Numbered from the stretch's first letter, positions 6,119 to 59,143 are shown. The stretch: 64,000 nt of DNA from Bacillota bacterium (GCA_023511455.1 JAIMBJ010000011.1:13637-77636), one strand, 5' to 3'. Translations and numbers: made by a program. The notes: generated from the letters alone by a model not told the origin.

Positions 6119-6291
6119 GAGGGTGTTCGAAATGGGTGGTTAGAATGAACAGATCACCTAACCACCTTGCCCTCTTCCCTGCGAGGAAAGGGGGGAACGC
6201 CCCTCTCCTCGTAGGAGAGGGGGTGAGGTAAAGCAAGACCGCCTCTCTCCTTGCGCTGCAACCAACTTCTCAACAATTCCCGAACACTCTC
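6119..6291. mobile_element. MITE-like non-autonomous element, copy A (173 bp), with terminal inverted repeats and 9-bp target-site duplications
   Basis: Terminal inverted repeats GAGGGTGTTCG...CGAACACTCTC. It is flanked by a perfect 9-bp direct repeat ATTTCCGCA (6110-6118 and 6292-6300). Three internal palindromes are present: ggtggtta..taaccacc, cccttccctgcgagggaaggg and ccctctcctcgtaggagaggg. It is about 85% identical to the copy at 56887-57071. Confidence 0.6.
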
Positions 6292-6300
6292 ATTTCCGCA

Positions 6301-6328
6301 TGACATCCTCCTCTAAAAGCGGTACAAT
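6301..6328 (+). promoter_or_regulatory. Putative hisF promoter (TGACAT-N16-TACAAT)
   Basis: tgacatcctcctctaaaagcggtacaat lies immediately downstream of the right target-site duplication of MITE copy A. The RBS gagggg is followed by the ATG at 6357. Confidence 0.45.
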
Positions 6329-27418: not shown

Positions 27419-27588
27419 CCGGCGCATCCCATGCAAACACCCGCGCCAAAGGTGCTGTCCTTCCTGGTGGCGAATCTGTCGCTCAGCGGAGCAATGCAGG
27501 ATAACGCGGGGTCTTCAAGGTTCCTGGTCCGCTCAAAATGACCAGCTACCTTACGTGCTTATCTCAAAAGGCTATTTTTCCGGTTTAC

Positions 27589-29412: not shown

Positions 29413-30168
29413 ACCGGTCGGGTGGTCAAAGAAGCGATGTTCCAGACCGAACATCCGCTGCAGATGTTCGCCCAGCGCGCGCACGCCCAGTGTCTCGGTG
29501 GCGTAGTGCCCGGCGTATAGCAGGTTGATGCCCAGCTCTTCAGCATCCAGATAGGTATGGTGCGCGCCTTCGCCCGTGATGAGCGTGTCGATACCCGTCC
29601 GATGCGCCTCGATCAGGGTGCGCGTCTGCCCTGCGCTGCCGGTGATGACGCCCACCCGCCGTGCCACTGCATTGCCGAAACAGAGGGCTTTCACCTGTGT
29701 GTGCAGGCTTGCTTCCAGACGGGACACCAGTTCCTGAAGCGGAAGCTCGGTTTCGCAAAGCACCCCAATCGGCGTGCCCTGATAATCCCCGAACCGTTCC
29801 ACAGGGGATAGCCCCAGCGTGCGCGCCAGCTGCACGTTGTTGCCCACTTCGGGATGCACGTCCAGCGGCAGATGTGCCGAGTATAAACTGATGCCCTCGC
29901 ACAATAGCGGCTGCAATCGCCGCCGATAGCGTCCCACCACCGGCTGTAAACCGCCCCAGAACAGTCCGTGATGCACGACAAGCAAATCGGCACCCCACGC
30001 TGCCGCCTCCTCCACGGACGCTACCGAAACGTCCACTGCCGTCATCACGCGGTGAATCGCCTCCTTGCCCTCTACCTGCAAACCGTTGAAGGCGTTGGGA
30101 TAGTCGGGGATGTCCCGGATGGCGAGATAATCATCCAGATAGCCCACCAGGTCAGGCAGACGAACCAT
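29407..30168 (-). CDS. Nif3-family dinuclear metal-centre protein (YqfO/YbgI-like)
   Basis: NAFNGLQVEG ... LLVVHHGLFW ... GHYATE, characteristic of Nif3. The start is at MVRLPDLVGYL with an AGGAGG RBS. Confidence 0.85.
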   Translation of the reverse strand: MVRLPDLVGYLDDYLAIRDIPDYPNAFNGLQVEGKEAIHRVMTAVDVSVASVEEAAAWGADLLVVHHGLFWGGLQPVVGRYRRRLQPLLCEGISLYSAHLPLDVHPEVGNNVQLARTLGLSPVERFGDYQGTPIGVLCETELPLQELVSRLEASLHTQVKALCFGNAVARRVGVITGSAGQTRTLIEAHRTGIDTLITGEGAHHTYLDAEELGINLLYAGHYATETLGVRALGEHLQRMFGLEHRFFDHPTGL

Positions 30169-31954
30169 GTTGCACCTCCTGCAGTCTCCGCGTGAGCAAT
30201 GCGCCCACACCCACGCCCAGAATGGCTGCCGCGGGCACAAAGCCGGAGTCGTTGAACACGAACGCGGCTCCCATGCACACCAGCCACGGTAGATACTCTC
30301 CGCGCCAGCCGTTGCGCCAGGCGGTCAGTGTACCCGAACGCCCCATCGCCCATAACGCCACGCCGATAACCAGCAACACTCCCCATGCAAACGGACTGAG
30401 TAACACACGGCTCATCAGTGCCAGCTTGGAGAGCAGGGTGTCCACGATGGCGGTGAAGCCTTCCGCCTGCCAGCGTAGCCATGTTTCCCCGATGTGTGAG
30501 GGGGATGCACTGAGGCTATCTACCCACATCATCCCGAAAGCCGCCAGCATACCCATCAGCAGCCACTGCGCACATCGCTGCGGGCGGGGCATCCTGCGCT
30601 TCCGACTCCATTCCCATGTGCAGCCCAACCCTGTCGCCGCGGTGAGCAGACCGCCCAGATTCGCTCCCCACACAGGCGTTGCCAGCACCAGTGCCGAGAT
30701 GAACCAGACCACTGCCCGCCATGTCGCCTTCAGACCGAATAGCCCCCAGGCCAGCGCGCAACCCACCAGCACTCCCATCATCTCGTTGCCGATGCCGTAG
30801 AAGCGGATACCAGACAGGGCATAGGCACTATATACGGATGACTGAACCCCGTGCTGCCCGCTCACGGCATCTACCACAACCACCAGCACGCTCAGCGCGC
30901 AGGCGCGCACATAGGCGCGAAACGGCTCGTGCCATGCTCCCCAATGCGCCAGCAGGGAAAGCCCCCATGCCGACAGCAGCACATGCGCCGCATATTGTGC
31001 GAAGCGACCGGCGGGCAGGTAAGGGGCAATCACTGTGCCCGCAGGCAGCGACAGCAGGGTTCCTATCGCCACGGACAGCACTAAACTGGCGCGTTGGGGG
31101 ACACGTCTTTGCCGAATCAACTGCAGTGCCGCCAGCACCGCCAGCAGCCCGCCCCCAACCTGCAGAGCGCCGAGCGGAATCAGCCCCTGCGCGTTCCAGC
31201 GGCTCAGGCGGGCGAGATGCTTGACCGTGACCAACGGCTCTTGAGCCACCACACGCATCGGGTGTTCGCCCACGTGCGGGCCAAGCCCGTGCCAGCGCAG
31301 AAGGGTCGGGGCGATGTCCACATCCGAGACCAGCCCTTCGGTTCGCGTGGTTTGGGAAGTCAGCACGCCGGTTCGCAATTCGCCACCTGCCGCGATGACA
31401 GGCGCCAATCGCTCGCCAGCAGGAGGTAGTCCGATGATGAGCAGGCGGTCGCGTTCGGGGTTGAGTGGGCTGATAGCGCGCTCCAGAGCGCGGCTGATGG
31501 TAGCCGGTTCCCCCGCTATCCACCATATCTGCAGCTGCGCAGAAGGAGATGGAGGCGAAAAGGACGGAGCCAGCAGCGCACGCACCTGCTGTTGCGATGT
31601 CTCCAGATGCAGTGTTACCGTCACACCCGCGCGCGCCAGTTCATCCGTCAGCCAGCGTACCTTCGGATAGCGCCGACGCACTGCCTCGACAGTGCCTTCG
31701 CGCGGCAGGACAAGCCGTCTTCCCGTCTGCAGGGTGAGGGCAAATCGGCTGGCGGCGTCGTTACCGGACGCACCAATGCTCATCAGCCCTGTCGCACCGT
31801 ATTGCGATAGCACATACAGCCCGCCAATCTCTCCACGCTCCACCTGCTGCCACGTCAGTCCCTCTACGATGACCAGAGCTGTGGTCGGCGGTTGGGCGAG
31901 AGCCGCGGCGGTCAGGCTGAGCAGGATGGCTATGGCAAGCGGAAACCGTCTCAC
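30152..31954 (-). CDS. Membrane protein: AP-superfamily-like periplasmic domain plus a polytopic C-terminal domain (paralog 2)
   Basis: Signal peptide MRRFPLAIAILLSLTAAALAQ. LVSDVDIAPTLL is AP-superfamily-like. FYGIGNEMMG is shared with paralog 1. The GTG start overlaps the argB stop (GTGA). Confidence 0.7.
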   Translation of the reverse strand: MRRFPLAIAILLSLTAAALAQPPTTALVIVEGLTWQQVERGEIGGLYVLSQYGATGLMSIGASGNDAASRFALTLQTGRRLVLPREGTVEAVRRRYPKVRWLTDELARAGVTVTLHLETSQQQVRALLAPSFSPPSPSAQLQIWWIAGEPATISRALERAISPLNPERDRLLIIGLPPAGERLAPVIAAGGELRTGVLTSQTTRTEGLVSDVDIAPTLLRWHGLGPHVGEHPMRVVAQEPLVTVKHLARLSRWNAQGLIPLGALQVGGGLLAVLAALQLIRQRRVPQRASLVLSVAIGTLLSLPAGTVIAPYLPAGRFAQYAAHVLLSAWGLSLLAHWGAWHEPFRAYVRACALSVLVVVVDAVSGQHGVQSSVYSAYALSGIRFYGIGNEMMGVLVGCALAWGLFGLKATWRAVVWFISALVLATPVWGANLGGLLTAATGLGCTWEWSRKRRMPRPQRCAQWLLMGMLAAFGMMWVDSLSASPSHIGETWLRWQAEGFTAIVDTLLSKLALMSRVLLSPFAWGVLLVIGVALWAMGRSGTLTAWRNGWRGEYLPWLVCMGAAFVFNDSGFVPAAAILGVGVGALLTRRLQEVQHGSSA

Positions 31955-40675: not shown

Positions 40676-42234
40676 GCGCCCCCTCCTTTGACCGCGCCGA
40701 CCATCAACGCGCCAATCTCCTCGCGCCGTTTGCGCTCGCCTTCCACCACGTCCACCATGCGCCCATCAAAAAGCACGCCCACGCGGTCACACAGGGTAAG
40801 CAGTTCGTCCAGGTCAAACGACACCACCAGTGCGCAGGCTCCCTGTCCACAGGCGTCGCGGATGGCATGGTGAACGGCTCGCGTGCTGGCGGCATCCAGT
40901 CCCCGCGTCGGTTGTCCCGCGATGAGCAGGGCAGGGGGTTCCATCAGCGCACGTCCGACCACCACCTTCTGCTGGTTGCCTCCGGACAGGGCGGAGAACG
41001 GCGCATCGGCGGCAGGCGCGCGCACCGCGAACCTGTGGATAATCTTCTGAGCGAACTCTTTCATGCGCGCAAACGACAGGGAAAACCTCGAACCGAACCT
41101 GCCCTCTCGCTGAAGACCCAGCGCCGCGTTCTCTGCGACCGACCATTCCAGAATCGCCCCGCGCAGATGGCGGTCCTCGGCGATGTAGCGTACGCCTTTG
41201 TGCAGGCGCACGGCAGGAGGCGCGTGTGTGATGTCTTCACCGTCCAGCCAGATGCGCCCCTGTGTTGGGGATACCAGCCCCATCAGGGCATCGATGAGTT
41301 CAGCCTGACCGCTACCATCTACGCCAGCGATACCGAACACCTCGCCCGGGTAGACCTGCAAAGAGACACCTTTCAGCCCTGCCCGACTGCGCACGGGAGG
41401 CACGGTTAGCCCCTCTACCCGCAAGCGAGGCTGGTCGCTCAGCCTTTTGCCCTGCAGCATCTCTTCCTCGGGCAACACCCCCTCCTCGCCGACGATGAGC
41501 CTTGCCAGCGTGCGGGCGTCGACCTGCGGCGGCGCACCCGGCTTTTCACGCACCGTCATGGTGGCAACTACCTCGCCAGCCCGCAATACGGTCACCTCGT
41601 CCGCATGTTCCAGAACCTCCTGCAGCTTGTGCGTGACCAGCAGCACCGTGCGTCCCTCCTCGGCGAAACGGTGCAACAGCGCGAAGAACGCCTCAGCGTC
41701 GGCAGGAGGCAAAACAGCGGTTGGCTCATCGAAGACAAGCACGCGCGCGTCGCGCAACAGCAGCTTCAGTATCTCCACCTTCTGCTGCTGCGATACCGAT
41801 AGTGAGCCTGCGGGAGCATCCCAGTCCGCCTGCAGCCCAATGACCTCAGCCAGCTCCTTCGCCCGCGCCCGCACCTGTGAGCGAGGCAGGCGAGAAAACA
41901 AGGCTCCTTCGCCGCTGAGCATCAGGTTCTCCAGCACACTCAGTCGGGGGATGAGCGCATAGTGCTGGCTGACCATGCCCACGCCTGCCTGCAATGCCTC
42001 CGCAGGCGAACGGAAGCGCACAGGTTGTGCATACAGGTACACCGTGCCGCTATCCGGTGGGAAGACGCCGTACAGGATGTTCATCAGGGTGGTTTTGCCC
42101 GCGCCGTTTTCGCCCACAATCGCATGGATAGTGCCCTGTCGGACGGAGACGGTGATGTGGTTGTTCGCCTGCACCGCTCCAAACCGCTTGCAGATATTTT
42201 CCATGTGCACGACAACAGGCGTATCGTTGCTCAT
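40672..42234 (-). CDS. ABC transporter ATP-binding protein with duplicated nucleotide-binding domains (nucleoside/sugar type)
   Basis: Two Walker A motifs (GENGAGKTTL and GVDGSGQAEL) and two signature motifs (LSGGNQQKV in the second half). No substrate-binding-protein gene is adjacent. Confidence 0.9.
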   Translation of the reverse strand: MSNDTPVVVHMENICKRFGAVQANNHITVSVRQGTIHAIVGENGAGKTTLMNILYGVFPPDSGTVYLYAQPVRFRSPAEALQAGVGMVSQHYALIPRLSVLENLMLSGEGALFSRLPRSQVRARAKELAEVIGLQADWDAPAGSLSVSQQQKVEILKLLLRDARVLVFDEPTAVLPPADAEAFFALLHRFAEEGRTVLLVTHKLQEVLEHADEVTVLRAGEVVATMTVREKPGAPPQVDARTLARLIVGEEGVLPEEEMLQGKRLSDQPRLRVEGLTVPPVRSRAGLKGVSLQVYPGEVFGIAGVDGSGQAELIDALMGLVSPTQGRIWLDGEDITHAPPAVRLHKGVRYIAEDRHLRGAILEWSVAENAALGLQREGRFGSRFSLSFARMKEFAQKIIHRFAVRAPAADAPFSALSGGNQQKVVVGRALMEPPALLIAGQPTRGLDAASTRAVHHAIRDACGQGACALVVSFDLDELLTLCDRVGVLFDGRMVDVVEGERKRREEIGALMVGAVKGGGA

Positions 42235-43406
42235 TCCTGCACGCTTTGCTCCAGGCAGACGGCTCTGGCGATATTGGGGTCGGTGCGGCGTATCTCTTGC
42301 GCCACCGGCTTCGCCTGCGAGGCGGAGCGCAGCTCGGCAAGGAGTGAGTCGTATTCCTCGCCATCTAGAGGCAGGGACACCGGCTTCTCTCTCTTTGCGG
42401 AGAGAATGATAGCGTTTGCCAGCTCAAGGCTCCGCAAAGCCTCCTCTCCCGGGGCGATCAGACGATGTTCTGTTCCCGTCAGCACCCGCGCGAAGTTGCG
42501 GATGACCGCTTCGTGCCCGGTAACCGCTTCCGGCAACTCGGTAGCGACAGGTTGCGCTGCGGGGAGCTCCCACATATCCTGTGCCTCATGCATATATTGC
42601 GGGATGGGAGGAACAATGCGCGTGACCGTCACCTGCTCGCCGTCGATCACCACCTTGCCTGCCTCACCGACGATTTCAAAGTAGCGGGTAGGGGGTACCT
42701 CGTTCACATTCACGTAGAGGTAGCCATGCGCTCCGTTCGGGTACTCCAGCAGGGCGAATGCCTCATCTTCCACCTCTATCTGGTGGTAACGGGTGCGTAT
42801 CTGTGCGTTCACCCGGCACGGCATTCCCGCCAGCCAGCAGAAGATATCCAGATGGTGCGGTGCTTGATTCATCAGCACCCCTCCGCCTTCCCCTGCCCAC
42901 GTGCCCCGCCATGCAGCTGAGCGGTAATATGCCTCATTGCGGCACCAGGTGGCGATGGTGTGCGCTCGCAACAGGTTGCCCACGATACCCTCTTCCACCG
43001 CTTGCCTCGCGATGCGATAGTGCCTTTCGGTGCGCATCTGCAGCATGGCACCGAGCAGGCATCCGCGCTGACGCGCCGACTCCACCATACGGCGACCTTC
43101 GGAAGTACTGACCGCCAGTGGTTTTTCGCAGAGCACATGCACGCCGTGTTCGAAGGCGCACTCGGCGATTTCCGCGTGCAACGGGTGCGGTGTGGCGATA
43201 AGCACCGCGTCTACCAGCCCACTGCCCAGCAGTTGCCGATAGTCGGTAAAGCCGGGTACGCCAAACTGTTGTGCCACCTGCCGGGTGCGTTCTGCCGAAG
43301 CGGAGCAGACCGCGGTGAGCTCGGTCTCTTCGATACGCTGGACAAGGGTGGCATGCGCCACACCCATACCACCCACCCCAATGACGCCAAAGCGCACCCG
43401 TTGCAT
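42231..43406 (-). CDS. Gfo/Idh/MocA-family oxidoreductase
   Basis: VRFGVIGVGGMG ... EKP Rossmann N-terminus. A tandem paralog lies upstream. Confidence 0.85.
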   Translation of the reverse strand: MQRVRFGVIGVGGMGVAHATLVQRIEETELTAVCSASAERTRQVAQQFGVPGFTDYRQLLGSGLVDAVLIATPHPLHAEIAECAFEHGVHVLCEKPLAVSTSEGRRMVESARQRGCLLGAMLQMRTERHYRIARQAVEEGIVGNLLRAHTIATWCRNEAYYRSAAWRGTWAGEGGGVLMNQAPHHLDIFCWLAGMPCRVNAQIRTRYHQIEVEDEAFALLEYPNGAHGYLYVNVNEVPPTRYFEIVGEAGKVVIDGEQVTVTRIVPPIPQYMHEAQDMWELPAAQPVATELPEAVTGHEAVIRNFARVLTGTEHRLIAPGEEALRSLELANAIILSAKREKPVSLPLDGEEYDSLLAELRSASQAKPVAQEIRRTDPNIARAVCLEQSVQE

Positions 43407-43414
43407 GAAGACCA

Positions 43415-44557
43415 CTACCTGACGATGTTCGGGTCGGATACCCGTTGACCAAGCACTCTGCTCTTGGGTTTGGAGCTGGCTTTCAGCTCCCGGAGCAGGG
43501 CATCGTACTCGGCACGGTCTACCGGCAGAGTGACCGTCTTACCCCGCTTGCTGGAAAGGATGATGGCGCTGGCAAGCTCCACACACCAGATACCTTCCTC
43601 TCCGGGCGCGATCAGCGGTTCACCATAGAGGATAGCCCGTGCGAAGTTGCGAGTAATCTGCGCATGACCGGCGGGCATCTCTTCTACCTGCACCTCTACC
43701 GGCTCTACCTGCGGTCCCGACCACATATCGGTCGCGGTGAAGGTAAACTCGCGGATGGGCGGCACGACTCGCCGGATGGTAACCTGTCCGTCCTGATACA
43801 CCACCTTGCCCTTGTCGCCAGCGATTTCAAAGCGCGTGGTGCCCGGAGCCTCGTTGGTGGTGGTATACAGGTAACCGTGCGCGCCGTTGGCGTACTCCAG
43901 CACGGCGAATGCCTCATCTTCTACCTCGATCTCATGCAGGCGCGTGCGCGTGGACGCCGTGACCTTCGCTGGTAGCCCTGCCAGCCAGCAGAACATGTCC
44001 AGTGCATGAGGCGCCTGGTTCACCAGCACACCACCACCCTCGCCGACCCATGTCGCTCGCCACTCCGCCGAGTCGTAGTACGCCTGATTGCGGTAGTAAG
44101 CGGCGACCATTTCGGTGCGCATGAGGTCTCCAATCACACCGTCCTGTATCGCCTTGCGGGCGACGCGATAGGCTTGTTCGGTGCGCATCTGGAACATGAT
44201 GGCGAACACTTTGCCCGCACGTCTGGCAGCTTCTAGCATACGGTCGGCTTCTACCGGATTAATCGCCATCGGCTTCTCGGTCAACACGTGCAACCCCTTG
44301 CTGAAAGCGTATTCCGCCACTTCAGGATGCACCGGATGCGGCGTAGCCACAAGCACCGCCTCTACCAGCCCGCTGTCAATGCACTGCCGGTAATCGGTAA
44401 AGAAAGGCACGTTGTACTGCTCGCCGACATTCTTCGCGACGTCCGGGTCCACATCGGCAACCGCCGTCAACTGCACCTCTTCCACTTCCTGTACCATCTT
44501 CGCGTGGGCGGAACCCATGCCTCCCACCCCAATAATGCCCAAACGTACCTTATCCAT
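43415..44557 (-). CDS. Gfo/Idh/MocA-family oxidoreductase (paralog)
   Basis: VRLGIIGVGGMG ... EKP. About 55% identical to the downstream paralog. Confidence 0.85.
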   Translation of the reverse strand: MDKVRLGIIGVGGMGSAHAKMVQEVEEVQLTAVADVDPDVAKNVGEQYNVPFFTDYRQCIDSGLVEAVLVATPHPVHPEVAEYAFSKGLHVLTEKPMAINPVEADRMLEAARRAGKVFAIMFQMRTEQAYRVARKAIQDGVIGDLMRTEMVAAYYRNQAYYDSAEWRATWVGEGGGVLVNQAPHALDMFCWLAGLPAKVTASTRTRLHEIEVEDEAFAVLEYANGAHGYLYTTTNEAPGTTRFEIAGDKGKVVYQDGQVTIRRVVPPIREFTFTATDMWSGPQVEPVEVQVEEMPAGHAQITRNFARAILYGEPLIAPGEEGIWCVELASAIILSSKRGKTVTLPVDRAEYDALLRELKASSKPKSRVLGQRVSDPNIVR

Positions 44558-48290: not shown

Positions 48291-49421
48291 TCACCGAATT
48301 CGATACAGATGCACTTCGTAGGGCTTGAACGAGTCCTCGAACCGACCGCGACGCACCGCGATACGCCTGCTCTCGCCCAGCACTTCGGCAGTGGCGCGCT
48401 CGGCAAGCGACTGCACCGTGAACTCGGCGGTGGTGGAGGCGTTGCGCATGCCTGCGGCAAACAGGTAGGTGGCTCCCTGGTAGCGTTTCACCATGCAGTG
48501 CACCGGAACATTCGGTGAGGAAGAGCGCACTGCGGCGCCTCCGTGGATGGTGGGGCTGTTGAGCACCGGCGCGAGCTCGCGAATCTGCCGGTTGATGGCG
48601 GTAACCGCCTCCAGCATCTCGCGATCCTCGAGCAGGGCAGCCTCCACGAAGTTCGGCTCAAACTGGTGCACAAAGTAGATGATACCCTGTGAGCCGTGAA
48701 TCAGCGACATCCACACCTCCGCCCGCACGTGGTGGGGCGTGGGCTTGCGCTCGAGGTTGCTGATGCGGGTGCACTCCAGCGCGTTCCAGACAATCTTCTT
48801 GCCATCGGTCGATTCATTCCAGCGTATCCACAGGTGCAGGCGTTCCAGCCCCTTCGCCACATACCAGAGCAGGTCCTCCGAGTTCAGCCCAGCGACGGGG
48901 TATACATCGTATGAGATGATGTCCGCTGCTTTCACGTAGGTGAAGTAATCGTCAGGATGCGCGCCGGTGCCGCGTCCTACCCAGCTATCGTTGGCAACGC
49001 CCTGCCCGAGGTTCAGCAACACCGGACGGTCGGGGTCGCGGCTCTTCAACTGGCGATACCACTCCACCACCTTTTCGGGTGGCACTGGACCACCCCATCC
49101 CTTACGTCCGGTAGCGGGGTCGGTCACGGGCTGAGCGTTATCGGGTTCATCCTGGTGCATCCAGCCGACGATGATGGGGTCTTCGCGATGCTTCAAGCCC
49201 ACGGCATTCTGCTCACAGATGACGGGCATTTTTGCATCGCGCAGGGTGGAGAGCTGCTCTTCAGTAGGTCCCTGCCACAGCCCCACATAGAGATTGAAAC
49301 CTGCCTGCTTGAAGCGGGGCGCGTTGCGTGGTTGCTGCAGCCAAACGGCGATAGGGAAGAATGAAGCATCCTTTGGCAGACCGAATTTCCAGCGCGAATA
49401 GACGTTGACAGAGAGCATCAT
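48291..49421 (-). CDS. Hypothetical protein, possibly a TIM-barrel glycosidase-like enzyme
   Basis: 376 aa with no signal peptide. The WMHQDEPDN motif is of unknown family. Confidence 0.45.
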   Translation of the reverse strand: MMLSVNVYSRWKFGLPKDASFFPIAVWLQQPRNAPRFKQAGFNLYVGLWQGPTEEQLSTLRDAKMPVICEQNAVGLKHREDPIIVGWMHQDEPDNAQPVTDPATGRKGWGGPVPPEKVVEWYRQLKSRDPDRPVLLNLGQGVANDSWVGRGTGAHPDDYFTYVKAADIISYDVYPVAGLNSEDLLWYVAKGLERLHLWIRWNESTDGKKIVWNALECTRISNLERKPTPHHVRAEVWMSLIHGSQGIIYFVHQFEPNFVEAALLEDREMLEAVTAINRQIRELAPVLNSPTIHGGAAVRSSSPNVPVHCMVKRYQGATYLFAAGMRNASTTAEFTVQSLAERATAEVLGESRRIAVRRGRFEDSFKPYEVHLYRIR

Positions 49422-50868: not shown

Positions 50869-51387
50869 TCATGGTTCCAGCTGTTTCAGTGCTTCGATCG
50901 CGCGATCCAACACCCTCTCCGAGACCCATAGTGAGGATTCTCTGGAGAGTCTAACAACCACTTCATGAGCTTCCTCTGGCTGAATAAAACCGAGTGAAGC
51001 ACATGCAATGACCACTCCAAGCGAGCCATGCACTTCTATGCCAAGTGTTTCAGCAAACAGCCGCGCTTTGGTGTCATCGGTAAGGAACCATGTACACTGC
51101 AGCTGTCTTGCCAAAGCAATCGCCATCGCTTCGCCGAGATGCAAATAACGTGCTGCTACCCATTTTTCGGCTTGTTTCGCATAATGACCCTCGGCTCGAA
51201 GCGTATCCACAGATATACCGATAGATGTTTCATCTGTTAATAAGCTGAACTCGTCAGCCACTTCTACAGGAATGCATATCCTGCCAAGGTAGTTGAGGAG
51301 GTGCTGCCTGCGTATCTGCCAGAGATGCAGTAACGGTCCGGTATTACAGACGATTAGCCTCGTTGCGTTTTGAGGTTCACTGCCCAT
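50869..51387 (-). CDS. DUF3368 / PIN-like domain protein (putative toxin)
   Basis: About 170 aa. Pairs with the upstream UPF0175-like gene. The locus GC content is about 50%. Confidence 0.65.
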   Translation of the reverse strand: MGSEPQNATRLIVCNTGPLLHLWQIRRQHLLNYLGRICIPVEVADEFSLLTDETSIGISVDTLRAEGHYAKQAEKWVAARYLHLGEAMAIALARQLQCTWFLTDDTKARLFAETLGIEVHGSLGVVIACASLGFIQPEEAHEVVVRLSRESSLWVSERVLDRAIEALKQLEP

Positions 51388-51563
51388 TCAATATCCTCGA
51401 GAAGGAACTGTTCCGCCAGCTGCCACAGTCTGCTGGACACGAACTCGCGAAGCGCTTCGCGAATAGCTTCCTCTTCACTAACGAACCAGCCCTCGTGAAC
51501 CATCTGCTCCAACGCATGGGCCAAGCTCTCGGGGAGCTGTACCTGTACCGTTTTCCCAGCCAT
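51354..51563 (-). CDS. UPF0175-family putative antitoxin
   Basis: MAGKTVQVQLPESLAHALEQMVHEGWFVSEEEAIREALREF. The start was set at the internal Met. The gene overlaps the downstream DUF3368 gene. Confidence 0.55.
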   Translation of the reverse strand: MAGKTVQVQLPESLAHALEQMVHEGWFVSEEEAIREALREFVSSRLWQLAEQFLLEDIEWAVNLKTQRG

Positions 51564-51713
51564 CGCTCTTAACCTCTCTTGCCGTCTTTCAGCATGATTG
51601 TACTCCGCTACAGCTTTGATATTCGGTGTGTGTCGAGCGCGTTCGGTAAACCGCCTCGTCGCGTGCCGCAAGGACTGAAACCCCAGCATAGCAAGACAGC
51701 TTCATTGTACCCT

Positions 51714-53183
51714 CTACTCCACCCGCACTTCCGTGTTGCCAAAGCGCAAGACGTCGCCCACCCGTATCAACTGCTGTTGCACAGGCTGCCCGTTAACGAA
51801 ACTGCCGTTGCGCGAGCCTTCGTCGATGAGAACCCACTGCGTGCCCTGCCTCTCCAGCCGCGCGTGCCGGCGGCTGACGGTGGGGTCGAAGTCGATCTGC
51901 AGGTCGCGCCCCGGCTCTCTGCCGATGGTCACCACGTTACCCTGCAGGGGCAACGCCATGCCCGCCTTTACACCATTCACTACCACCAGTCGGGTGGGAA
52001 CCGTTCCCATGGTGGGCTGCGCTGCGGTAGCCGTTAATGGTGGCGACGCCGTGGATGGCGACCCCGAAGGAGCCGCCGCCGGTGCCGATGCGCCCGGCAA
52101 CACGCTACACGCACATTGCCCTGTGACCGGGTCCTTGCGCTCACCGCAGTATGGGCACAGGTAGTCAGGCAGGGGCGGGCGCGAGGAGGGTTTCTCCACC
52201 CTCTCCATCGCCTCTCGCACCAGCGAGCGTGTGGCTTTTTCGAAAAACTGCAGGCGCATGGAGGCTATCTGGATGGTATCCCCATCCTTCAGCCATGCCT
52301 GCTGTACCGGCTGTCCGTTCAGCAGCGTACCCGCCGGCGAGCCGAGGTCTTCTATCAGGTGGCGGTTCTGTTGCTTGATGATGCGGGCGTGCTGCGGCGC
52401 GATTTGAGGGTCGCCAAAAAGGGGAATATCGGCGTACTCATCCCGTCCGATAATGCACACGGGTTTGTCCACCGGATACTCTCTGCCCTCGTTACGACCC
52501 ACCACCACGCGCACCCACGCCGCTTTCAACGCCTCCTGAACCAGCGCAATGAAGAACCCAATGCTCGCCCCCAGCACGGGGAAACCCACCGCCCGACCCG
52601 GCGCACCGACCTCTACCCGTTCACCACCCGACATCGCCAGATAGAGCGGGGCGAATATCAGCGTGAATATCTCGAACGCGATACCGCCCAACGCGCCTCC
52701 GATAGCGCCGCCTATCGTGCTGTGCCACCATCGCTTTGCGGAGCCGGTAGTCACCCCGACGGCTGCGCCGATTCCTGCGCCAAACAACATCCAGCCGACA
52801 GTACGGGGCACAATGTCGGTGATGAAGCCGAGGGGGGTGGGAGATGCGCCCATACCAGCGGGGTTCCCCAGAAGGTTACTCAAAGAGCCGTAAACGAGGT
52901 TGCCGATGAACAGGGCAATCGTCGTGCCGGGCAGACCGACGAACGCGGTAAGCAGCCCTTTGCGCACTGCCTGACCCGGCAGCCCGCGCGTGAGGCTGTC
53001 CACCATCCCCAGCGCGAAGCCGTAGCACCCGCCCAAGATGACCGCCAGCCAGATGGTCTCTCGCGCGGCTGCAACCGGGTTGAGCATCACCGCCTGATGG
53101 TCGATGAGCGGTTCCTGTATCGAGAACCCCACGACCCCGCCTGCGCCTCCCAGCAATAACCCCAGCAGCAGCCTGCCAATCAT
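51714..53183 (-). CDS. Polytopic membrane protein with two cytoplasmic FHA domains and a zinc ribbon
   Basis: Glycine-zipper TM helices, then FHA 1 (VCIIGRDEYADIPL...HARII), then CPYCGERKDPVTGQCACS, then FHA 2 (VVTIGREPGRDLQIDFDPTVSRRHARLE). Confidence 0.8.
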   Translation of the reverse strand: MIGRLLLGLLLGGAGGVVGFSIQEPLIDHQAVMLNPVAAARETIWLAVILGGCYGFALGMVDSLTRGLPGQAVRKGLLTAFVGLPGTTIALFIGNLVYGSLSNLLGNPAGMGASPTPLGFITDIVPRTVGWMLFGAGIGAAVGVTTGSAKRWWHSTIGGAIGGALGGIAFEIFTLIFAPLYLAMSGGERVEVGAPGRAVGFPVLGASIGFFIALVQEALKAAWVRVVVGRNEGREYPVDKPVCIIGRDEYADIPLFGDPQIAPQHARIIKQQNRHLIEDLGSPAGTLLNGQPVQQAWLKDGDTIQIASMRLQFFEKATRSLVREAMERVEKPSSRPPLPDYLCPYCGERKDPVTGQCACSVLPGASAPAAAPSGSPSTASPPLTATAAQPTMGTVPTRLVVVNGVKAGMALPLQGNVVTIGREPGRDLQIDFDPTVSRRHARLERQGTQWVLIDEGSRNGSFVNGQPVQQQLIRVGDVLRFGNTEVRVE

Positions 53184-53186
53184 CGC

Positions 53187-54479
53187 TTACACTTCCCATC
53201 GGAAGAAGGTTGCGCCAATCTGTATCTCGTCGCCCGGGCGCAGGGGTTGCTCGGTCACACGCACGCCGTTGACCCACGTGCCGTTGGAGGAGCCTTCGTC
53301 GCGAATCACCCAGCCATCGCCCTGCTTGAGAATACGTGCGTGTCGTCGGCTGACGGTGTTGTCCGTGCCCAGGTGGATGGTGTTGCCCACCTCGCGCCCA
53401 ATAGTGGCTTCCGCGCCGCTAATCTCGAAGATGTGCCCCCCGTACGCGCCTCGCGCACCCACCAGGCGCGGCACTCCGGTCGCCACCGTGGTCGCAGTGG
53501 GAGCGACAACACCCGCTGCCGCAGGCGCTACCGAACATGCACACGCTCCCGTCACCGGGTCCACCGGCTGACCGCAGAAGGGGCAATGACCTTCGGGAAC
53601 CTGCACCGCCGGTTTCTGGACAGGTTGGGCAGGCTGAGGAGCGGCGGCTTCCTGCGCCACGTCGATGCCGAGCTTCTTCAAGGCATCGGGGAGGGTGAGT
53701 TGCTTCCGCTTCCAGATGCGGTAACCGCTGTAAACCAACCCCGCCAGCACCAGCAAGCCAAGCAGTGTGTTCCACACCGGAAAAGCGCGGGGTGCCCTTG
53801 TCGGAGAGGGTGCCGCAGGTTGCGCCTGCGAGGTCGGCTGAGGCGTGGTGGGTGCGGTATCCAGCACCGGTGCGCCGCTGGAGATGACCATCGTCAGGGT
53901 TACCACCGGGTCGGCACGTTCGGCTTGGATCTCCGCCTCCTGCGAAGCGGTGAGGTTGTTGCCGTAGTTCACCAGCACGCTTACCTTGCCCAGTTTCACC
54001 CGCTCCAGCGAGACGATTCCGTTTTGAGACGGTTCCAGCAGGGCAGTGTGGATGGTGTTGCTGGCATCGGTAAGCATCACGAAGGCGGCGGCGATGGGCT
54101 TATCCTCCGGCGTTTGCAAACGCACCTGCACGCGCATCGCGTACTGGAACTGGTCAGGGGTGACGGTGACGGTGGTGTCGTTGGGCTTCAGGGTAACCAG
54201 AGCGAGGTTGCCGTACTTCATGTCGTACACGCCGACGCGCGCACCTTCCAGTGTCTTGTCCGCGGTATCGGCGAACCGCTTTTTCAGCGAGGCAATGTCC
54301 AGCTCCACCTTACCGCCAGTGCTCTCATTCGGTGGCAGGAACACCGTCTGACCGTTCGCCGATTCCAACCACACCAGATACTTGCCCTCGCTGGGCACGT
54401 TCACCGTCACCTTATCGGGCAGCGCGTAGACCGCCGTTGCCATGAATGCCAAACATGTCAGCCATGCAATACGCAGCAT
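53187..54479 (-). CDS. Bitopic FHA-domain protein: secreted beta-sandwich domain, Pro/Thr-rich linker, TM helix, zinc ribbon and FHA
   Basis: Signal peptide MLRIAWLTCLAFMATAVYA. CPFCGQPVDPVTGACACS zinc ribbon. The FHA domain is ATIGREVGNTIHLGTDNTVSRRHARIL. There is a 3-nt gap to the downstream FHA gene. Confidence 0.8.
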   Translation of the reverse strand: MLRIAWLTCLAFMATAVYALPDKVTVNVPSEGKYLVWLESANGQTVFLPPNESTGGKVELDIASLKKRFADTADKTLEGARVGVYDMKYGNLALVTLKPNDTTVTVTPDQFQYAMRVQVRLQTPEDKPIAAAFVMLTDASNTIHTALLEPSQNGIVSLERVKLGKVSVLVNYGNNLTASQEAEIQAERADPVVTLTMVISSGAPVLDTAPTTPQPTSQAQPAAPSPTRAPRAFPVWNTLLGLLVLAGLVYSGYRIWKRKQLTLPDALKKLGIDVAQEAAAPQPAQPVQKPAVQVPEGHCPFCGQPVDPVTGACACSVAPAAAGVVAPTATTVATGVPRLVGARGAYGGHIFEISGAEATIGREVGNTIHLGTDNTVSRRHARILKQGDGWVIRDEGSSNGTWVNGVRVTEQPLRPGDEIQIGATFFRWEV

Positions 54480-54483
54480 CTTC

Positions 54484-56043
54484 TCACCCTCCAGACTGCT
54501 CGATATGCATTATCGCCTCCGGCAGGCAGCGGATAATATCTCCTGCTATCAAGCCTGCCGCTCCCTCCTTCTGCGCGGCAAGGTCGCCTGCCAGTCCGTG
54601 TATATATACGCCTGCGGTTGCACCGTGCTCCGCATCCAGCCCCTGCGCCAGCAACCCTGCTATCGCTCCGGTCAACACGTCGCCACTGCCGCCCGTTGCC
54701 ATGCCTGCATTGCCGGTGGGGTTCACCCAGATTCTGCCTTCGGGCGTGGCAATGACAGTGCGCGCTCCCTTCAGCACGACAACCGCCCCAAAACGGTGTG
54801 CCGCCTCCTGTGCTATCGCCAGACGGTTCGCCAGCACGGTCGCCGTATCGGTGTTCATCAGCCTCGCCATCTCGCCCGGGTGCGGCGTGAACACCAGTGG
54901 CGGGGGCGACTCGGGCAGGATGTCTGGCTCTTGCGCGATACAGTTCAGGGCATCGGCGTCGATGACGCAGGGAGCCTCGGCGATGCTCAGCAGCTTGCGC
55001 AACGCCTGGCGAGCAGGGAGATATGTGCCCCAGCCCGGCCCGATGGCAAGCACGTTTGCCCGCTCCAGCAGAGGCGATATCGCGTCGATGGATTCTGCGC
55101 TCAAACAGCCTTCCGGAGCATTCGGCAGGGGACGAACCATCGCCTCGCGCAGAGTACCCGCCGCGGCTGCGTACATGCTCTGGGGAACCGCCACCGAACA
55201 TAACCCCGCGCCCACGCGCAGTGCGGCTTCCGCCGCCATCATCGGCGCACCTGCCAGCCCTACCGAACCTCCTACCACCAGCACATGCCCGAACCGTCCT
55301 TTGTGCGCGTCGGCGGGACGAACCGGCAGCCACCGGTGCACCTGCTCCCGCGTTATCAGACGGCGGGTAATGTCCGCCTGTTCCACCACTGCCGCTGGGA
55401 TGCCGATGTCAGCTACCACCACTTCGCCAGCGAACTCTGCGCCCGGGTATACTGCCACCCCCACCTTCATCGCGCCGAAAGTGACCGTGAGCGTGGCGCG
55501 CATGGCGCAACCGCGTACCGCTCCCGTGTCGGCGTCGATGCCCGAAGGCACGTCCACTGCCACCACCGGCACAGAGCACTCGCCGAAAAAGCGTATCGTC
55601 TCACCGACGAGACCCCGTACCTCGCCGGTGACGCCGATACCGAGCAGGGCATCCACCACGATGTCCCATCGGTTTGCCCAGATGGAGTGCAGGTGCTCCA
55701 CAGAGCGCAGAACATGCAGGGGCAAACCCAGCTTTTGCACGATTTGCAGGTTGGTAAGGGCATCACCCGTCACTTTCGCAGGGTCAGCGACCAGCACCAC
55801 CTGAACCTCTGCGCCTCGCTGTGCGACCTGGCGGGCGACCACCATACCGTCGCCGCCGTTGTTGCCGCCGCCGCACAGCACCAGCACGCGCTTGCCCCGC
55901 CAGCTGCCCAACCGCCTCTCCGTATGTGTGACCACCTGCAGTCCCGCGTTCTCCATCAACAGCAAGCCAGGGATGCCGAACTCCTCGATGGTGCGTCGGT
56001 CCATCTGGCGCATCTCTTCCGCGGTCACCAGCACAGGCAACAT
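54484..56043 (-). CDS. nnr: Bifunctional NAD(P)H-hydrate repair enzyme Nnr (YjeF N- and C-terminal domains)
   Basis: GGGNNGGDG in the YjeF-N domain and GGSGDVLTG in the carbohydrate-kinase-like YjeF-C domain. Confidence 0.88.
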   Translation of the reverse strand: MLPVLVTAEEMRQMDRRTIEEFGIPGLLLMENAGLQVVTHTERRLGSWRGKRVLVLCGGGNNGGDGMVVARQVAQRGAEVQVVLVADPAKVTGDALTNLQIVQKLGLPLHVLRSVEHLHSIWANRWDIVVDALLGIGVTGEVRGLVGETIRFFGECSVPVVAVDVPSGIDADTGAVRGCAMRATLTVTFGAMKVGVAVYPGAEFAGEVVVADIGIPAAVVEQADITRRLITREQVHRWLPVRPADAHKGRFGHVLVVGGSVGLAGAPMMAAEAALRVGAGLCSVAVPQSMYAAAAGTLREAMVRPLPNAPEGCLSAESIDAISPLLERANVLAIGPGWGTYLPARQALRKLLSIAEAPCVIDADALNCIAQEPDILPESPPPLVFTPHPGEMARLMNTDTATVLANRLAIAQEAAHRFGAVVVLKGARTVIATPEGRIWVNPTGNAGMATGGSGDVLTGAIAGLLAQGLDAEHGATAGVYIHGLAGDLAAQKEGAAGLIAGDIIRCLPEAIMHIEQSGG

Positions 56044-56046
56044 CGG

Positions 56047-56781
56047 CTATCCCCCCTGACGTTGCGCGATGATGGTGCGCACCCTGTTCAGGTCTTCCTC
56101 GGTGTCGACGCCAATGGAGGTCTGCTCGACGCGCACCATGCGGATACGGTAGCCGTTTTCCAGCACGCGCAGCTGCTCCAGCATCTCCGTCTGCTCCAGC
56201 GGGGTCGGCTCCATCGCGGCGTACTGAAGCAGGAAATCACGTCGGTAAGCGTAGATGCCCAGATGCTTGTAGACGATAGCGGGGGCGGCAGGGTCGCGCG
56301 GATAGGGAATGCGTGAGCGCGAAAAGTACAGCGCGTTGCCCCTGCAGTCGACCACCACTTTCACCACCGTCGGTTTGTCCTTCTCTTCCTCGGTGGCGGG
56401 GCACATCAGACTGCTCATCGGCAGGGTAGGGTCTTCCACTAGAGGGCGCGCTACCGCGTCGATGTTCTCCGGCGGCATCAGCGGTTCGTCCCCTTGGATG
56501 TTAACGATGATATCTGCAGAGAGGTTTTGAGCCGCCTCCGCCAATCGCTCGGTACCGGAGCGATGTTTGGGCGAGGTCATTACCGCGATGCCGCCGAAGC
56601 CCCGCACGACCTCGGCGATTTGTTCATCAGGCGTGGCAACCATCACCTCACTCAGCGTTTTCGCCTGTTTGGCGTTGTGCCACACCCACCATATCATGGG
56701 CTTGCCCGCGATGTCCAGCAAGGGCTTGTTCGGCAGGCGCACCGCTGCCAGCCTCGCAGGAATGATGCCTACCACTTCCAT
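56047..56781 (-). CDS. kdsB: 3-deoxy-manno-octulosonate cytidylyltransferase (CMP-Kdo synthetase)
   Basis: IIPARLAAVRLPNKPL ... IVNIQGDEP. Implies LPS biosynthesis and therefore a diderm envelope. Confidence 0.9.
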   Translation of the reverse strand: MEVVGIIPARLAAVRLPNKPLLDIAGKPMIWWVWHNAKQAKTLSEVMVATPDEQIAEVVRGFGGIAVMTSPKHRSGTERLAEAAQNLSADIIVNIQGDEPLMPPENIDAVARPLVEDPTLPMSSLMCPATEEEKDKPTVVKVVVDCRGNALYFSRSRIPYPRDPAAPAIVYKHLGIYAYRRDFLLQYAAMEPTPLEQTEMLEQLRVLENGYRIRMVRVEQTSIGVDTEEDLNRVRTIIAQRQGG

Positions 56782-56886: not shown

Positions 56887-57071
56887 GAGGGTGTTCCACA
56901 TTGGTGGTTGAATGGAGGATCACCTAATCCCCTTGCCCCCTTCCCTGCGAGGGAAGGGGGAACGCCCCTCTCCTCGTAGGAGAGGGGACGGGGTGAGGTA
57001 AGACAAGGGGTAGCAAGACCGCCTCTCTCCTTGCGCTACAACCAACTTCTCCACAATTCCCGAACACCCTC
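56887..57071. mobile_element. MITE-like element, copy B (185 bp), with a perfect 10-bp terminal inverted repeat and a 9-bp target-site duplication
   Basis: Terminal inverted repeat GAGGGTGTTC...GAACACCCTC. Flanking 9-mers are GCCTCTCCT and GCTTCTCCT (8 of 9 match). It carries the same internal palindromes as copy A and ends 9 bp before the tRNA-Leu -35 box. Confidence 0.6.
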
Positions 57072-57079
57072 GCTTCTCC

Positions 57080-57108
57080 TTGACATTTTGGGGGAGGCTG
57101 GTTATACT
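57080..57108 (+). promoter_or_regulatory. tRNA-Leu promoter (TTGACA-N17-TATACT)
   Basis: ttgacattttgggggaggctggttatact places the transcription start about 9 nt upstream of the mature tRNA 5' end. Confidence 0.55.
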
Positions 57109-57124
57109 CTATCTGGTGCTACAC

Positions 57125-57209
57125 GCCGGAGTGGCGGAATGGTAGACGCGCCCGCCTCAAAAGCGGGTGCCGAACAGGCGTGGGGGTTCGAGTCCCCCCT
57201 CCGGCACCA
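57125..57209 (+). tRNA. tRNA-Leu (anticodon CAA), type II with a long variable arm and encoded CCA
   Basis: Acceptor stem gccggag/ctccggc. Anticodon stem cccgc/gcggg with loop ctCAAaa. Variable arm tgccgaacaggcgt. T-arm gggggTTCGAgtccccc. The 3' end is ACCA. Confidence 0.9.
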
Positions 57210-58399: not shown

Positions 58400-59143
58400 A
58401 TGAATCGCAAGGCAGCTCTCATCGGTGCGGGAGTGCTGGTGATACTGGTCGTCGGTATCCTGCTGGGACGTCACCTTTTCCCGATTACCCACCGCCAGGC
58501 GAGTGCGCCGCCCGGTGGCAACGTGCTGTTGGCGCCCGCTCCCCAGCTGCCCGATACGAACCTGCTTCGGGCGGAAGGCGAGGCACAGCCGCCTCCGCAG
58601 GAACCCCAAAAGCGTCCACCGGATGATATTATCGACTACTTGAAACATTTGCAGAGGATAGAGGCGCAGCGTCAGGCGATGCAGCGTGACCTGACCCCGG
58701 CGTTCAACGCCTTCGTGAACGCGATGGCGATGCGGGCAACCATTGACGAGCAGGAAATGCAGCAACGCATGAGCGCGGTACAGCAGGCTCCTCAGGACTA
58801 CTCGCAGAGGTGGGCGCAGCTCAGCCAGATGTTCGAGTCGAAACAGCCACCGCCCGCCTGTCAGCCCCTGCATGAGGCGTACCGGAAGATGCTGGCATCC
58901 ACCGTCGCCTACATGACCAAAGTATATTTGGCTCTGCAACAGGCGCAGACCGACCCCAACGCCGCGCTGCAGGTGCTGTCGCAGATGCAGGGCACTGCTT
59001 CTACCGATGTGGACACCCAGATCCTGCAGGCGAACTATGAGCTTCAGCAGATTCTGGACAAATACGACCTGCGCCGCTACTTCCCCGGCTTCGTGATTAG
59101 CGGAGACGGCGGGCTGAATCTGCGCAGTATCTTTGGGGGATAG
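58400..59143 (+). CDS. Membrane-anchored hypothetical protein (Gln-rich, coiled-coil-like)
   Basis: N-terminal TM helix (AALIGAGVLVILVVGILLG). No recognisable domain. Confidence 0.5.
   Translation: MNRKAALIGAGVLVILVVGILLGRHLFPITHRQASAPPGGNVLLAPAPQLPDTNLLRAEGEAQPPPQEPQKRPPDDIIDYLKHLQRIEAQRQAMQRDLTPAFNAFVNAMAMRATIDEQEMQQRMSAVQQAPQDYSQRWAQLSQMFESKQPPPACQPLHEAYRKMLASTVAYMTKVYLALQQAQTDPNAALQVLSQMQGTASTDVDTQILQANYELQQILDKYDLRRYFPGFVISGDGGLNLRSIFGG

Follow-up and report, generated by a model that had tools for sequence, protein, structure and literature searches.

Why would two membrane proteins with FHA domains be encoded directly behind kdsB and nnr, with neither a kinase nor a phosphatase beside them? 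The question is raised by a 64,000-nt stretch of DNA from Bacillota bacterium (GCA_023511455.1 JAIMBJ010000011.1:13637-77636; hereafter, the window). Its minus strand encodes the membrane FHA proteins P3 (430 amino acids (aa); 53187..54479) and P4 (489 aa; 51714..53183), both delineated from their open reading frames (ORFs), Pfam matches, AlphaFold2 (AF2) models and hydropathy. We consider it somewhat probable that P3 and P4 are co-inherited, membrane-anchored phosphothreonine adaptors that resemble archaeal ArnA and work with a kinase/VWA module encoded elsewhere.

An earlier reading made from the DNA alone (hereafter, the sequence-only reading) had stated that the pair has no kinase or PP2C partner. 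This is true of the window: tblastn of the serine/threonine protein kinase (STPK), PP2C, VWA, RDD, KptA, methyltransferase and AcpS proteins of relatives against its whole length gave no matches other than the P3 and P4 FHA regions, and neither Pkinase nor PP2C was detected by Pfam among the ORFs between 27.5 and 64 kb. It is not a property of the system, since relatives carry such a module downstream of the pair. We compared 21 independent loci, i.e., the window and 20 others (given here as L numbers), which form a convenience sample rather than a census; neighbors were counted in those loci whose sequence covers the side concerned. An ArnB-like VWA gene lies within 10 kb downstream of the pair in 14 of the 21 loci (L005-L010, L015-L020, L091 and L094) and is missing from that distance in the window, L089, L090, L001, L003, L011 and L014. 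The order nnr-P3-P4-VWA extends to distant lineages at 28-38% identity. All ten loci with at least 4 kb of sequence beyond the VWA gene continue with a soluble protein containing two FHA domains (2xFHA), a PP2C and a Hanks kinase; in L018 the PP2C and the kinase are present and no 2xFHA row was called, and the sequences of L015, L016 and L017 end ~2-7 kb past the VWA gene. The full downstream run consists of VWA, the soluble 2xFHA protein, sometimes RDD, PP2C, sometimes KptA, and the Hanks kinase (occasionally after a methyltransferase), and the P0221 locus is another canonical nnr-P3-P4-VWA-...-STPK arrangement.

At the position of the VWA-2xFHA-PP2C-STPK module, the window and L089 have a toxin-antitoxin pair, which in the window marks the boundary of the cluster. 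Because most relatives have the module directly downstream, the absence of a kinase from the window is local. Judged from gene order, it is a lineage-specific break or local rearrangement of the ancestral cluster by which the module was lost or moved, and such a break explains the paradox of FHA proteins without a kinase. P3 and P4 are not decaying remnants in this kinase-less clade, given the purifying selection indicated by their ratios of nonsynonymous to synonymous substitution (dN/dS), which against L089 and L090 are 0.10-0.11 for P3 and 0.08-0.11 for P4; for comparison, the ratios for nnr and kdsB are 0.16 and 0.05.

Homology searches returned 302 matches for P3 and 196 for P4, and those with names are from Armatimonadota, Chthonomonadetes or Fimbriimonadia metagenome-assembled genomes (MAGs), so by these matches the two families appear essentially confined to Armatimonadota. 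A scan of genome contigs with a generic FHA peptide pattern gave at least 80 loci; among the 80 listed, ~12 are true P3 relatives and the species of the window is not represented. The two genes travel together: a P4 homologue directly follows P3 on the same strand in 20 of the 21 loci, at 3 to 149 nt (contig L012 stops before the P4 position). The zinc-ribbon-linker-FHA halves of the two proteins are paralogous (41% identity, E = 2e-30), and with this relationship and their adjacency the description of P3 and P4 as a matched pair is supported. The exception, L011 (9836-13284, Fimbriimonadia MAG TGS_ARM5), is the sole locus that has P3 without P4, with no nnr before and a prolyl oligopeptidase after it.

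The same loci bear on whether the pair belongs functionally with the enzymes encoded in front of it. With gaps of 3-4 nt and no terminator-like site between the genes, P3 and P4 could be an extension of the kdsB-nnr operon that senses or regulates the synthesis of 3-deoxy-manno-octulosonate (Kdo) and lipopolysaccharide (LPS) or the repair of NAD(P)HX, the FHA domains acting on the enzymes or their partners. nnr is indeed immediately 5' of P3 in 17 of 20 loci, with a 4-nt overlap in L005, a 23-nt overlap in L003 and a 3-nt gap in L007, and envelope genes are found near the cluster (LptC in L005, PBP2 in L007, Glycos_transf_4 and FtsX in L091, and kdsB in the window). However, kdsB is 5' of nnr only in the window and in L089 (86% identity), and nnr is dispensable next to the pair, as it is not in this position in L001, L011 and L090. 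Both L090 and L001 have the pair with neither enzyme gene, and in L090 (76% identical in P3) the pair stands alone behind a DUF5693 gene that is divergently transcribed, and must therefore have its own promoter. No conserved phospho-acceptor tail was identified in either enzyme. Moreover, acpS-nnr, a pair with housekeeping functions, recurs upstream in L003, L005, L008 and L094, so the nnr link is explicable as inherited synteny.

Given these distributions, a functional extension of the kdsB-nnr operon is improbable, and a functional tie to KdsB in particular is unlikely. The proposed linkage of orthologous pairs to kdsB and nnr survives in its nnr part, which is ancestral as nnr precedes the pair in 17 of 20 loci, but not in its kdsB part, which gene order indicates to be incidental, lineage-specific and recently acquired. 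Comparison of the 21 loci revealed no evidence for a functional tie of the pair to Kdo or LPS synthesis, and the coupling to an LPS gene, unexpected from the window alone, is explained as a recent juxtaposition. The recurrent envelope genes offer weak, circumstantial support for an envelope-related role.

The FHA domains themselves were assessed for the residues that contact phosphothreonine in characterized FHA domains (PMC6509490), i.e., Gly-Arg, Ser-x-x-His and Asn. PF00498 matched both proteins above its gathering score of 20.7 (P3, 69.8 bits; P4, 130.7 bits over two stretches). The P3 FHA domain (aa 338-429; 53193..53468, minus strand; PF00498, E = 3e-19) has the full set, with G361, R362, S377, R378, H380 and N399 invariant in 18 of 18 homologues, and so does the second FHA domain of P4 (FHA2; aa 398-488; 51720..51992, minus strand), which is canonical in an alignment of 23 homologues, with G421, R422, S437, H440 and N459 invariant in all 23. 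The first, membrane-proximal domain of P4 (FHA1; aa 222-315; 52239..52520, minus strand) is degenerate in the alignment of 23 homologues: it retains Gly-Arg and His, but has A262 at the Ser position and A284 at the Asn position, where Ser is present in 4 of 23 homologues and Asn in none. By these residues the P3 FHA and P4 FHA2 domains, and not P4 FHA1, look able to bind phosphothreonine, and the expectation that the FHA domains are phosphothreonine readers is retained for the former two and abandoned for the third.

In a second explanation, the pair has a structural role that does not depend on phosphorylation, as a scaffold in an envelope machine for secretion, pilus formation or motility, like the FHA domains of YscD/SctD, EssC or GltG, and needs no kinase. 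FHA1 lacks the canonical Ser and Asn, and in the wider family to which it belongs Arg is lost as well (see below). Pfam Yop-YscD_cpl matches all three FHA domains, 7 of the 21 loci have no kinase module nearby, and pilin-like N_methyl genes are present in several neighborhoods, all of which agree with a scaffold. Against this, the phosphothreonine-binding residues of P3 FHA and P4 FHA2 are kept throughout diverse homologues, PP2C and STPK follow the pair in 10 of the 21 loci, and there is no consistent linkage to an ATPase of a secretion system or pilus. Compared with YscD, the topology is inverted, the FHA domain being C-terminal and the periplasmic part N-terminal. The NCBIfam models of such scaffolds score far under their cutoffs, namely SctD/YscD of type III secretion (TIGR02500, 16.6 versus 86; P3 topology reversed), TagH of type VI secretion (TIGR03354, 37-62 versus 120) and GltG of gliding (NF033760, 36-64 versus 650). 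We thus assign the scaffold a low probability.

The reading of P3 and P4 as phosphothreonine adaptors draws its model from ArnA of Sulfolobales. In ArnA, a flexible linker of ~70 residues joins a zinc ribbon to an FHA domain (PMC10470591), with C21, C24, C35 and C38 as the ribbon cysteines (PMC12852372, PMC6509490, PMC10470591). The zinc finger recognizes ArnB in its unphosphorylated form, at the ArnB beta-sandwich and C-terminal domains, while the FHA domain binds phospho-ArnB (PMC12852372, PMC6509490). The state of this switch is set by the ArnC/ArnD kinases and a PP2A phosphatase. The layout of zinc ribbon, flexible linker and FHA domain is common to ArnA, the cytoplasmic halves of P3 and P4, and the 2xFHA protein of the relatives: both P3 and P4 have a four-cysteine (Cys4) ribbon, a disordered linker and a C-terminal canonical FHA domain. 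The 2xFHA protein combines a TQ-containing tail with a C-x2-C-x10-C-x2-C ribbon whose cysteine spacing is identical to that of ArnA; two FHA domains follow, connected by an acidic linker.

The likeness extends to the partner. A profile built from ten VWA proteins of the clusters and searched against all PDB sequences had as its best match 8s05_A, the ArnB of S. acidocaldarius (E = 1.2e-13), from the ArnA-ArnB co-crystal (PMC12852372), and the alignment spans the metal ion-dependent adhesion site (MIDAS) motif and the beta-sandwich and continues into the C-terminal helical region. The ArnB paralogue vWA2/ArnE (5a8j) was matched as well (E = 1.4e-11). The module of the relatives and the ArnA-ArnB set both include a VWA partner in which a beta-sandwich is combined with a helical C-terminal region, and in both there is, in addition, a kinase of the Hanks type as well as a Ser/Thr phosphatase. 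The N-terminal tails of the VWA proteins contain 3-4 [RK]TQ[MV] repeats, in which T4 and T28 are invariant and Q29 is near-invariant. These VWA and 2xFHA features were seen in L005, L006, L007 and L008 (e.g., L005 12302-13363 and 10889-12259).

The systems also differ in several respects. ArnA is soluble, whereas P3 and P4 are integral to the membrane and have domains that are periplasmic or polytopic. The candidate phospho-acceptor is the N-terminal TQ tail in the Armatimonadota VWA protein and the C-terminal helical bundle in ArnB, and the phosphatase is PP2C in Armatimonadota and PP2A in Sulfolobales. The Armatimonadota system is bacterial and, unlike the ArnA-ArnB set, its VWA and kinase genes are absent from the window.

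Several observations weigh against ArnA-like adaptors that serve a kinase/VWA module. A regular expression for the Hanks catalytic loop matched nothing in the ORFs of at least 100 aa in the 64-kb window, and a VWA gene is likewise absent from it by tblastn and Pfam scans. The VWA profile search gave no match from a KatS3mg genome among the best 120 of 1275 matches. The 7 of 21 loci with no module within 10 kb suggest that the role of the pair may be kinase-independent. With respect to ArnA itself, the likeness is confined to architecture and fold: the zinc-ribbon-FHA half of P3 had no PDB sequence match to it at E ≤ 0.01, the fold-level match of the P3 FHA domain to ArnA (5a8i, E = 2e-6) ranks below many other FHA domains, and the second zinc knuckle of P3 and P4 is CxC, not CxxC as in ArnA. 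The ribbons were modelled with moderate confidence, the predicted local distance difference test (pLDDT) per 10 residues being 70-79 in P3 and 75-78 in P4.

Better-studied bacterial FHA proteins were also compared with the pair. Among solved FHA domains, those of GarA/OdhI are the closest in both sequence and fold (33-38% identity, Foldseek E about 1e-9), and the best Foldseek matches of the P3 FHA domain are GarA/OdhI (E = 7e-10) and FhaA. The logic of GarA/OdhI, in which a phospho-TQ-type N-terminal tail binds the FHA domain, is similar to that suggested by the soluble 2xFHA protein of the relatives. Unlike P3 and P4, GarA and OdhI are small soluble metabolic regulators, and membership in the OdhI/GarA family (NF041660) was rejected (56.7 and 103 bits versus a cutoff of 200).

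Mycobacterium tuberculosis FhaA (Rv0020c) and FhaB-FipA (Rv0019c) provide a third explanation, because they too are encoded by two adjacent FHA adaptor genes 5' of a PP2C and Hanks kinase genes. The pair would then be the Armatimonadota counterpart of FhaA/FhaB, an adaptor of PknA/PknB-PstP-type control of peptidoglycan synthesis and division. FhaB_Rv0019c (NF049868) is the best NCBIfam match of both P3 and P4, the Foldseek matches include the FHA domain of FhaA (3oun, 2lc1), a PBP2-type transpeptidase follows the kinase in L007, and the order FHA-FHA-...-PP2C-STPK is similar to the mycobacterial order fhaA-fhaB-pstP-...-pknA-pknB. Yet both proteins score below the curated NF049868 cutoff of 125 bits (P3, 69.1; P4, 117.6 summed over two stretches), so membership was rejected. 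No locus has rodA or pbpA between phosphatase and kinase, and these two genes of the mycobacterial system are absent from the Armatimonadota cluster, while the VWA and zinc-ribbon-2xFHA genes have no counterpart in the mycobacterial operon. The protein layouts differ as well, given that FhaA and FhaB have no zinc ribbons, periplasmic beta-sandwich, six-helix domain or VWA partner. We give an FhaA/FhaB counterpart a low probability, although an FhaA/FhaB-like role in the cell wall or division is possible as the output of the pair.

In Deinococcus radiodurans, work on a vWA-STPK-FHA-PP2C operon describes its FHA protein as an orthologue of cyanobacterial FraH (bioRxiv 10.64898/2026.01.23.701218). 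Compared by description only, DRA0331-DRA0334 (vWA, STPK, FraH-like FHA and PP2C) comprise the same four protein types as the Armatimonadota module; they are bacterial and their kinase is membrane-associated (bioRxiv 10.64898/2026.01.23.701218). In contrast to Armatimonadota, the gene order differs, the PP2C has a KI-FHA domain of its own, and no P3-like or P4-like membrane FHA proteins are described for that operon (bioRxiv 10.64898/2026.01.23.701218).

How the two adaptors would be attached to the membrane is suggested by their models. P3 was modelled by AF2 on an 18-sequence alignment (mean pLDDT 79.9). Its N-terminus is hydrophobic (residues 1-20) with an AF2 helix at 2-16, consistent with a signal peptide, and is followed by a predicted periplasmic beta-rich region (aa 21-198; 53886..54419, minus strand; pLDDT per 10 residues 81-97), in which residues 23-198 form confidently modelled beta strands described as a double beta-sandwich. 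When Pfam was run on this region, its second half (residues 117-197) was found to be similar to CarboxypepD_reg, a prealbumin-like family (PF13620), in 12 of 18 family members (best E = 6e-7), with a weak match in P3 of the window itself (E = 0.013). A PDB sequence search with the isolated periplasmic domain returned nothing meaningful. A disordered linker rich in Pro, Ala and Thr (residues 200-233) leads to the transmembrane (TM) helix (aa 235-259; 53703..53777, minus strand), which is supported by the AF2 helix, a hydropathy segment at 231-251 and flanking charges.

Because the K/R-rich WKRKQL comes right after the TM helix, the C-terminus of P3 is predicted to be cytoplasmic. There lies the Cys4 zinc ribbon CPFCGQPVDPVTGACAC (aa 299-315; 53535..53585, minus strand), with the spacing C299-x2-C302-x10-C313-x-C315 and its cysteines kept in 16-17 of 18 homologues, and a second disordered linker (318-333) separates it from the FHA domain. 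Residues 308-327 were considered as a second TM helix (hydropathy 1.52) and rejected, being Ala/Val-rich and spanning the end of the zinc ribbon and the AF2-disordered linker. The sequence-only reading had predicted this layout of signal peptide, beta-sandwich, Pro/Thr linker, TM helix, zinc ribbon and FHA domain, and Pfam, AF2 and hydropathy agree with it. The modelled topology fits a protein that links a periplasmic domain to a cytoplasmic phosphothreonine reader.

P4 (AF2 mean pLDDT 82.7, predicted TM-score (pTM) 0.62) begins with a membrane domain of six glycine-zipper helices (aa 2-218; 52530..53180, minus strand), modelled at 2-26, 36-65, 69-104, 117-144, 149-184 and 193-218. Per-10-residue pLDDT is 85-96 in most blocks of this domain and 64-80 around aa 31-40, 101-120 and 171-200. 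K/R-rich loops (63-75, 145-152 and after 217) form a positive-inside pattern that is consistent with both termini being inside. FHA1 comes directly after the sixth helix, followed by the Cys4 zinc ribbon CPYCGERKDPVTGQCAC (aa 343-359; 52107..52157, minus strand; C343/C346/C357/C359), which is kept in 16 of 23 homologues, and a disordered linker (362-393) that precedes FHA2. Here too the predicted order of glycine-zipper TM helices, FHA, zinc ribbon and second FHA was reproduced by Pfam, AF2 and hydropathy.

The membrane domain of P4 and FHA1 seem to form a unit of their own. The six-helix domain has no Pfam family (Gly-zipper_YMGG gives weak matches only) and no PDB relative by phmmer against PDB, and on its own it matches 338 among 1.84 billion cluster representatives. 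In nine of nine sampled full-domain matches with other layouts, Pfam placed an FHA domain directly after it; one of the nine carries an N-terminal JAB domain before the six-helix domain, and a tenth sampled match is partial and without a Pfam hit. When P4 was aligned with 22 such proteins (hereafter, TM-FHA proteins), R127, R197, W223, G229, G233 and G246 were invariant and H265 and N289 nearly so. This wider family mostly has Ser or Ala in place of the canonical Arg, which 3 of 23 rows retain, and conservation is also lacking at the canonical Ser and Asn positions. Since the phosphothreonine-contacting residues are not conserved across the TM-FHA family, P4 FHA1 is very probably phospho-independent and part of a distinct six-helix and degenerate-FHA module. 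The unit comprises residues 1-320 of P4 (window 52224-53183) and is found in proteins P0395-P0493. Among the cluster members looked up for the variant TM-FHA proteins, a single taxon was named, Candidatus Eremiobacteraeota.

Taken together, the favored reading can be set out as a tentative mechanism. The kinase would phosphorylate the VWA and 2xFHA proteins at TQ threonines, and the P3 FHA and P4 FHA2 domains would bind the phosphothreonines of these TQ tails and so recruit the complex to the inner membrane. Mycobacterial PknA and PknB prefer TQ sites. By analogy with ArnA-ArnB, the zinc ribbons of P3 and P4 may contact the unphosphorylated VWA protein, and PP2C would reset the system. The P3 periplasmic beta-sandwich and the P4 six-helix/pseudo-FHA module could receive input from, or deliver output to, the envelope. 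In the clade of the window, the pair would act in trans with a module encoded elsewhere, because the kinase module is no longer adjacent.

A broader proposal is that the nnr-linked P3 and P4, VWA, 2xFHA, PP2C and kinase make up a seven-gene system found throughout Armatimonadota, a membrane-tethered counterpart of ArnA/ArnB in which three zinc-ribbon-FHA proteins compete for phospho-TQ tails and the six-helix and pseudo-FHA module couples the switch to the state of the membrane or envelope. We hold this to be possible, but speculative. The six-helix and pseudo-FHA module also occurs outside the phylum, e.g., in Eremiobacterota.

The gene run that includes the pair was located on the minus strand as the sequence-only reading had placed it, with ORFs that confirm all four genes and stop-to-ATG gaps of 3, 4 and 3 nt for kdsB/nnr, nnr/P3 and P3/P4, respectively. 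The run is opened by kdsB (56047..56781, 244 aa; PF02348, E = 2e-56), which encodes 3-deoxy-manno-octulosonate cytidylyltransferase and scores above the cutoff of the equivalog TIGR00466 (236 bits versus 155.2). nnr (54484..56043, 519 aa; YjeF_N and Carb_kinase) encodes a bifunctional NAD(P)H-hydrate epimerase/dehydratase that is above the cutoffs of both TIGR00197 (160.5 versus 88.6) and TIGR00196 (252.6 versus 129.85), and below that of the E. coli-type equivalog PRK10565 (331 versus 703). A purine-rich, Shine-Dalgarno-like run can be read 5' of each of the four starts. No convincing terminator emerged between the four genes in a consensus scan: the minus-strand candidates were weak, and the 7 terminator-like sites of the region are within the range given by chance (4.8 ± 2.1). 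kdsB, nnr, P3 and P4 share a strand, very short gaps and the lack of an internal terminator, and on the basis of spacing they are a putative single operon. Their tight spacing would be a transcriptional arrangement, the nnr part coming from the ancestor of the phylum and the kdsB part being recent.

On the 3' side of P4 there is a ribbon-helix-helix (RHH, CopG-type) antitoxin gene and a DUF3368 (PIN-like) toxin gene (50869..51689, minus strand; PF01402, PF11848), then a GlcD-like FAD oxidase gene (Pfam). The antitoxin and toxin ORFs, directly 3' of P4, overlap by ~30 nt. Met43 of the listed antitoxin ORF is the probable start, judging by the gene of 69 aa at this position in L089.

On the other side, the intergenic stretch 5' of kdsB is 343 nt long and ends at a divergent tRNA-Leu(CAA) gene (57125-57209). 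Between the kdsB start and this tRNA gene lies the second copy (56956-57086) of an intergenic element of ~115-130 nt, whose first copy is at 6191-6306. Each copy is made of two direct-repeat segments (88-89% identical), and the element holds a perfect GC-rich hairpin, CCCCTCTCCT-cgt-AGGAGAGGGG. An extra perfect hairpin (56936-56960) is found just 5' of the second copy, and the 3' end of that copy overlaps the best sigma-70-like match of the region (TTGACA-17-TATACT; 57080-57108, plus strand), which is directed at the tRNA.

Elsewhere in the window, two adjacent paralogues of the GFO/IDH/MocA oxidoreductases (42231-44557, minus strand) have an 83-nt stretch in common (81% identity) and adjoin a region with a sugar ATP-binding cassette (ABC) transporter and a LacI-type regulator. 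Three ORFs were without a Pfam match at E ≤ 0.001, i.e., 27538-29412 (plus strand, 624 aa), 30152-31954 (minus strand, 600 aa) and 48291-49421 (minus strand, 376 aa), and one, 58400-59143 (plus strand, 247 aa), was without a match at E ≤ 0.01. The 376-aa and 247-aa ORFs are kept in position in L089.

FHA adaptors that act with Hanks kinases and PP2C are an already known kind of bacterial signalling, and by function the pair belongs with them; by architecture it is ArnA-like. What is new is the combination, in which an ArnA-style zinc-ribbon-FHA unit is attached to either a beta-sandwich in the periplasm or a polytopic domain in the membrane. The phylum across which the P3/P4 family is conserved has been little studied, the family has neither a name nor a characterized member, and our literature search returned no paper mentioning Armatimonadetes together with FHA domains. 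Within P4, the six-helix and degenerate-FHA module, with its 338 cluster representatives, is a candidate new domain family that is apparently undescribed. To our knowledge, the ArnA/ArnB logic has been studied so far only in Sulfolobales. The findings suggest that this logic has a bacterial, membrane-anchored relative.

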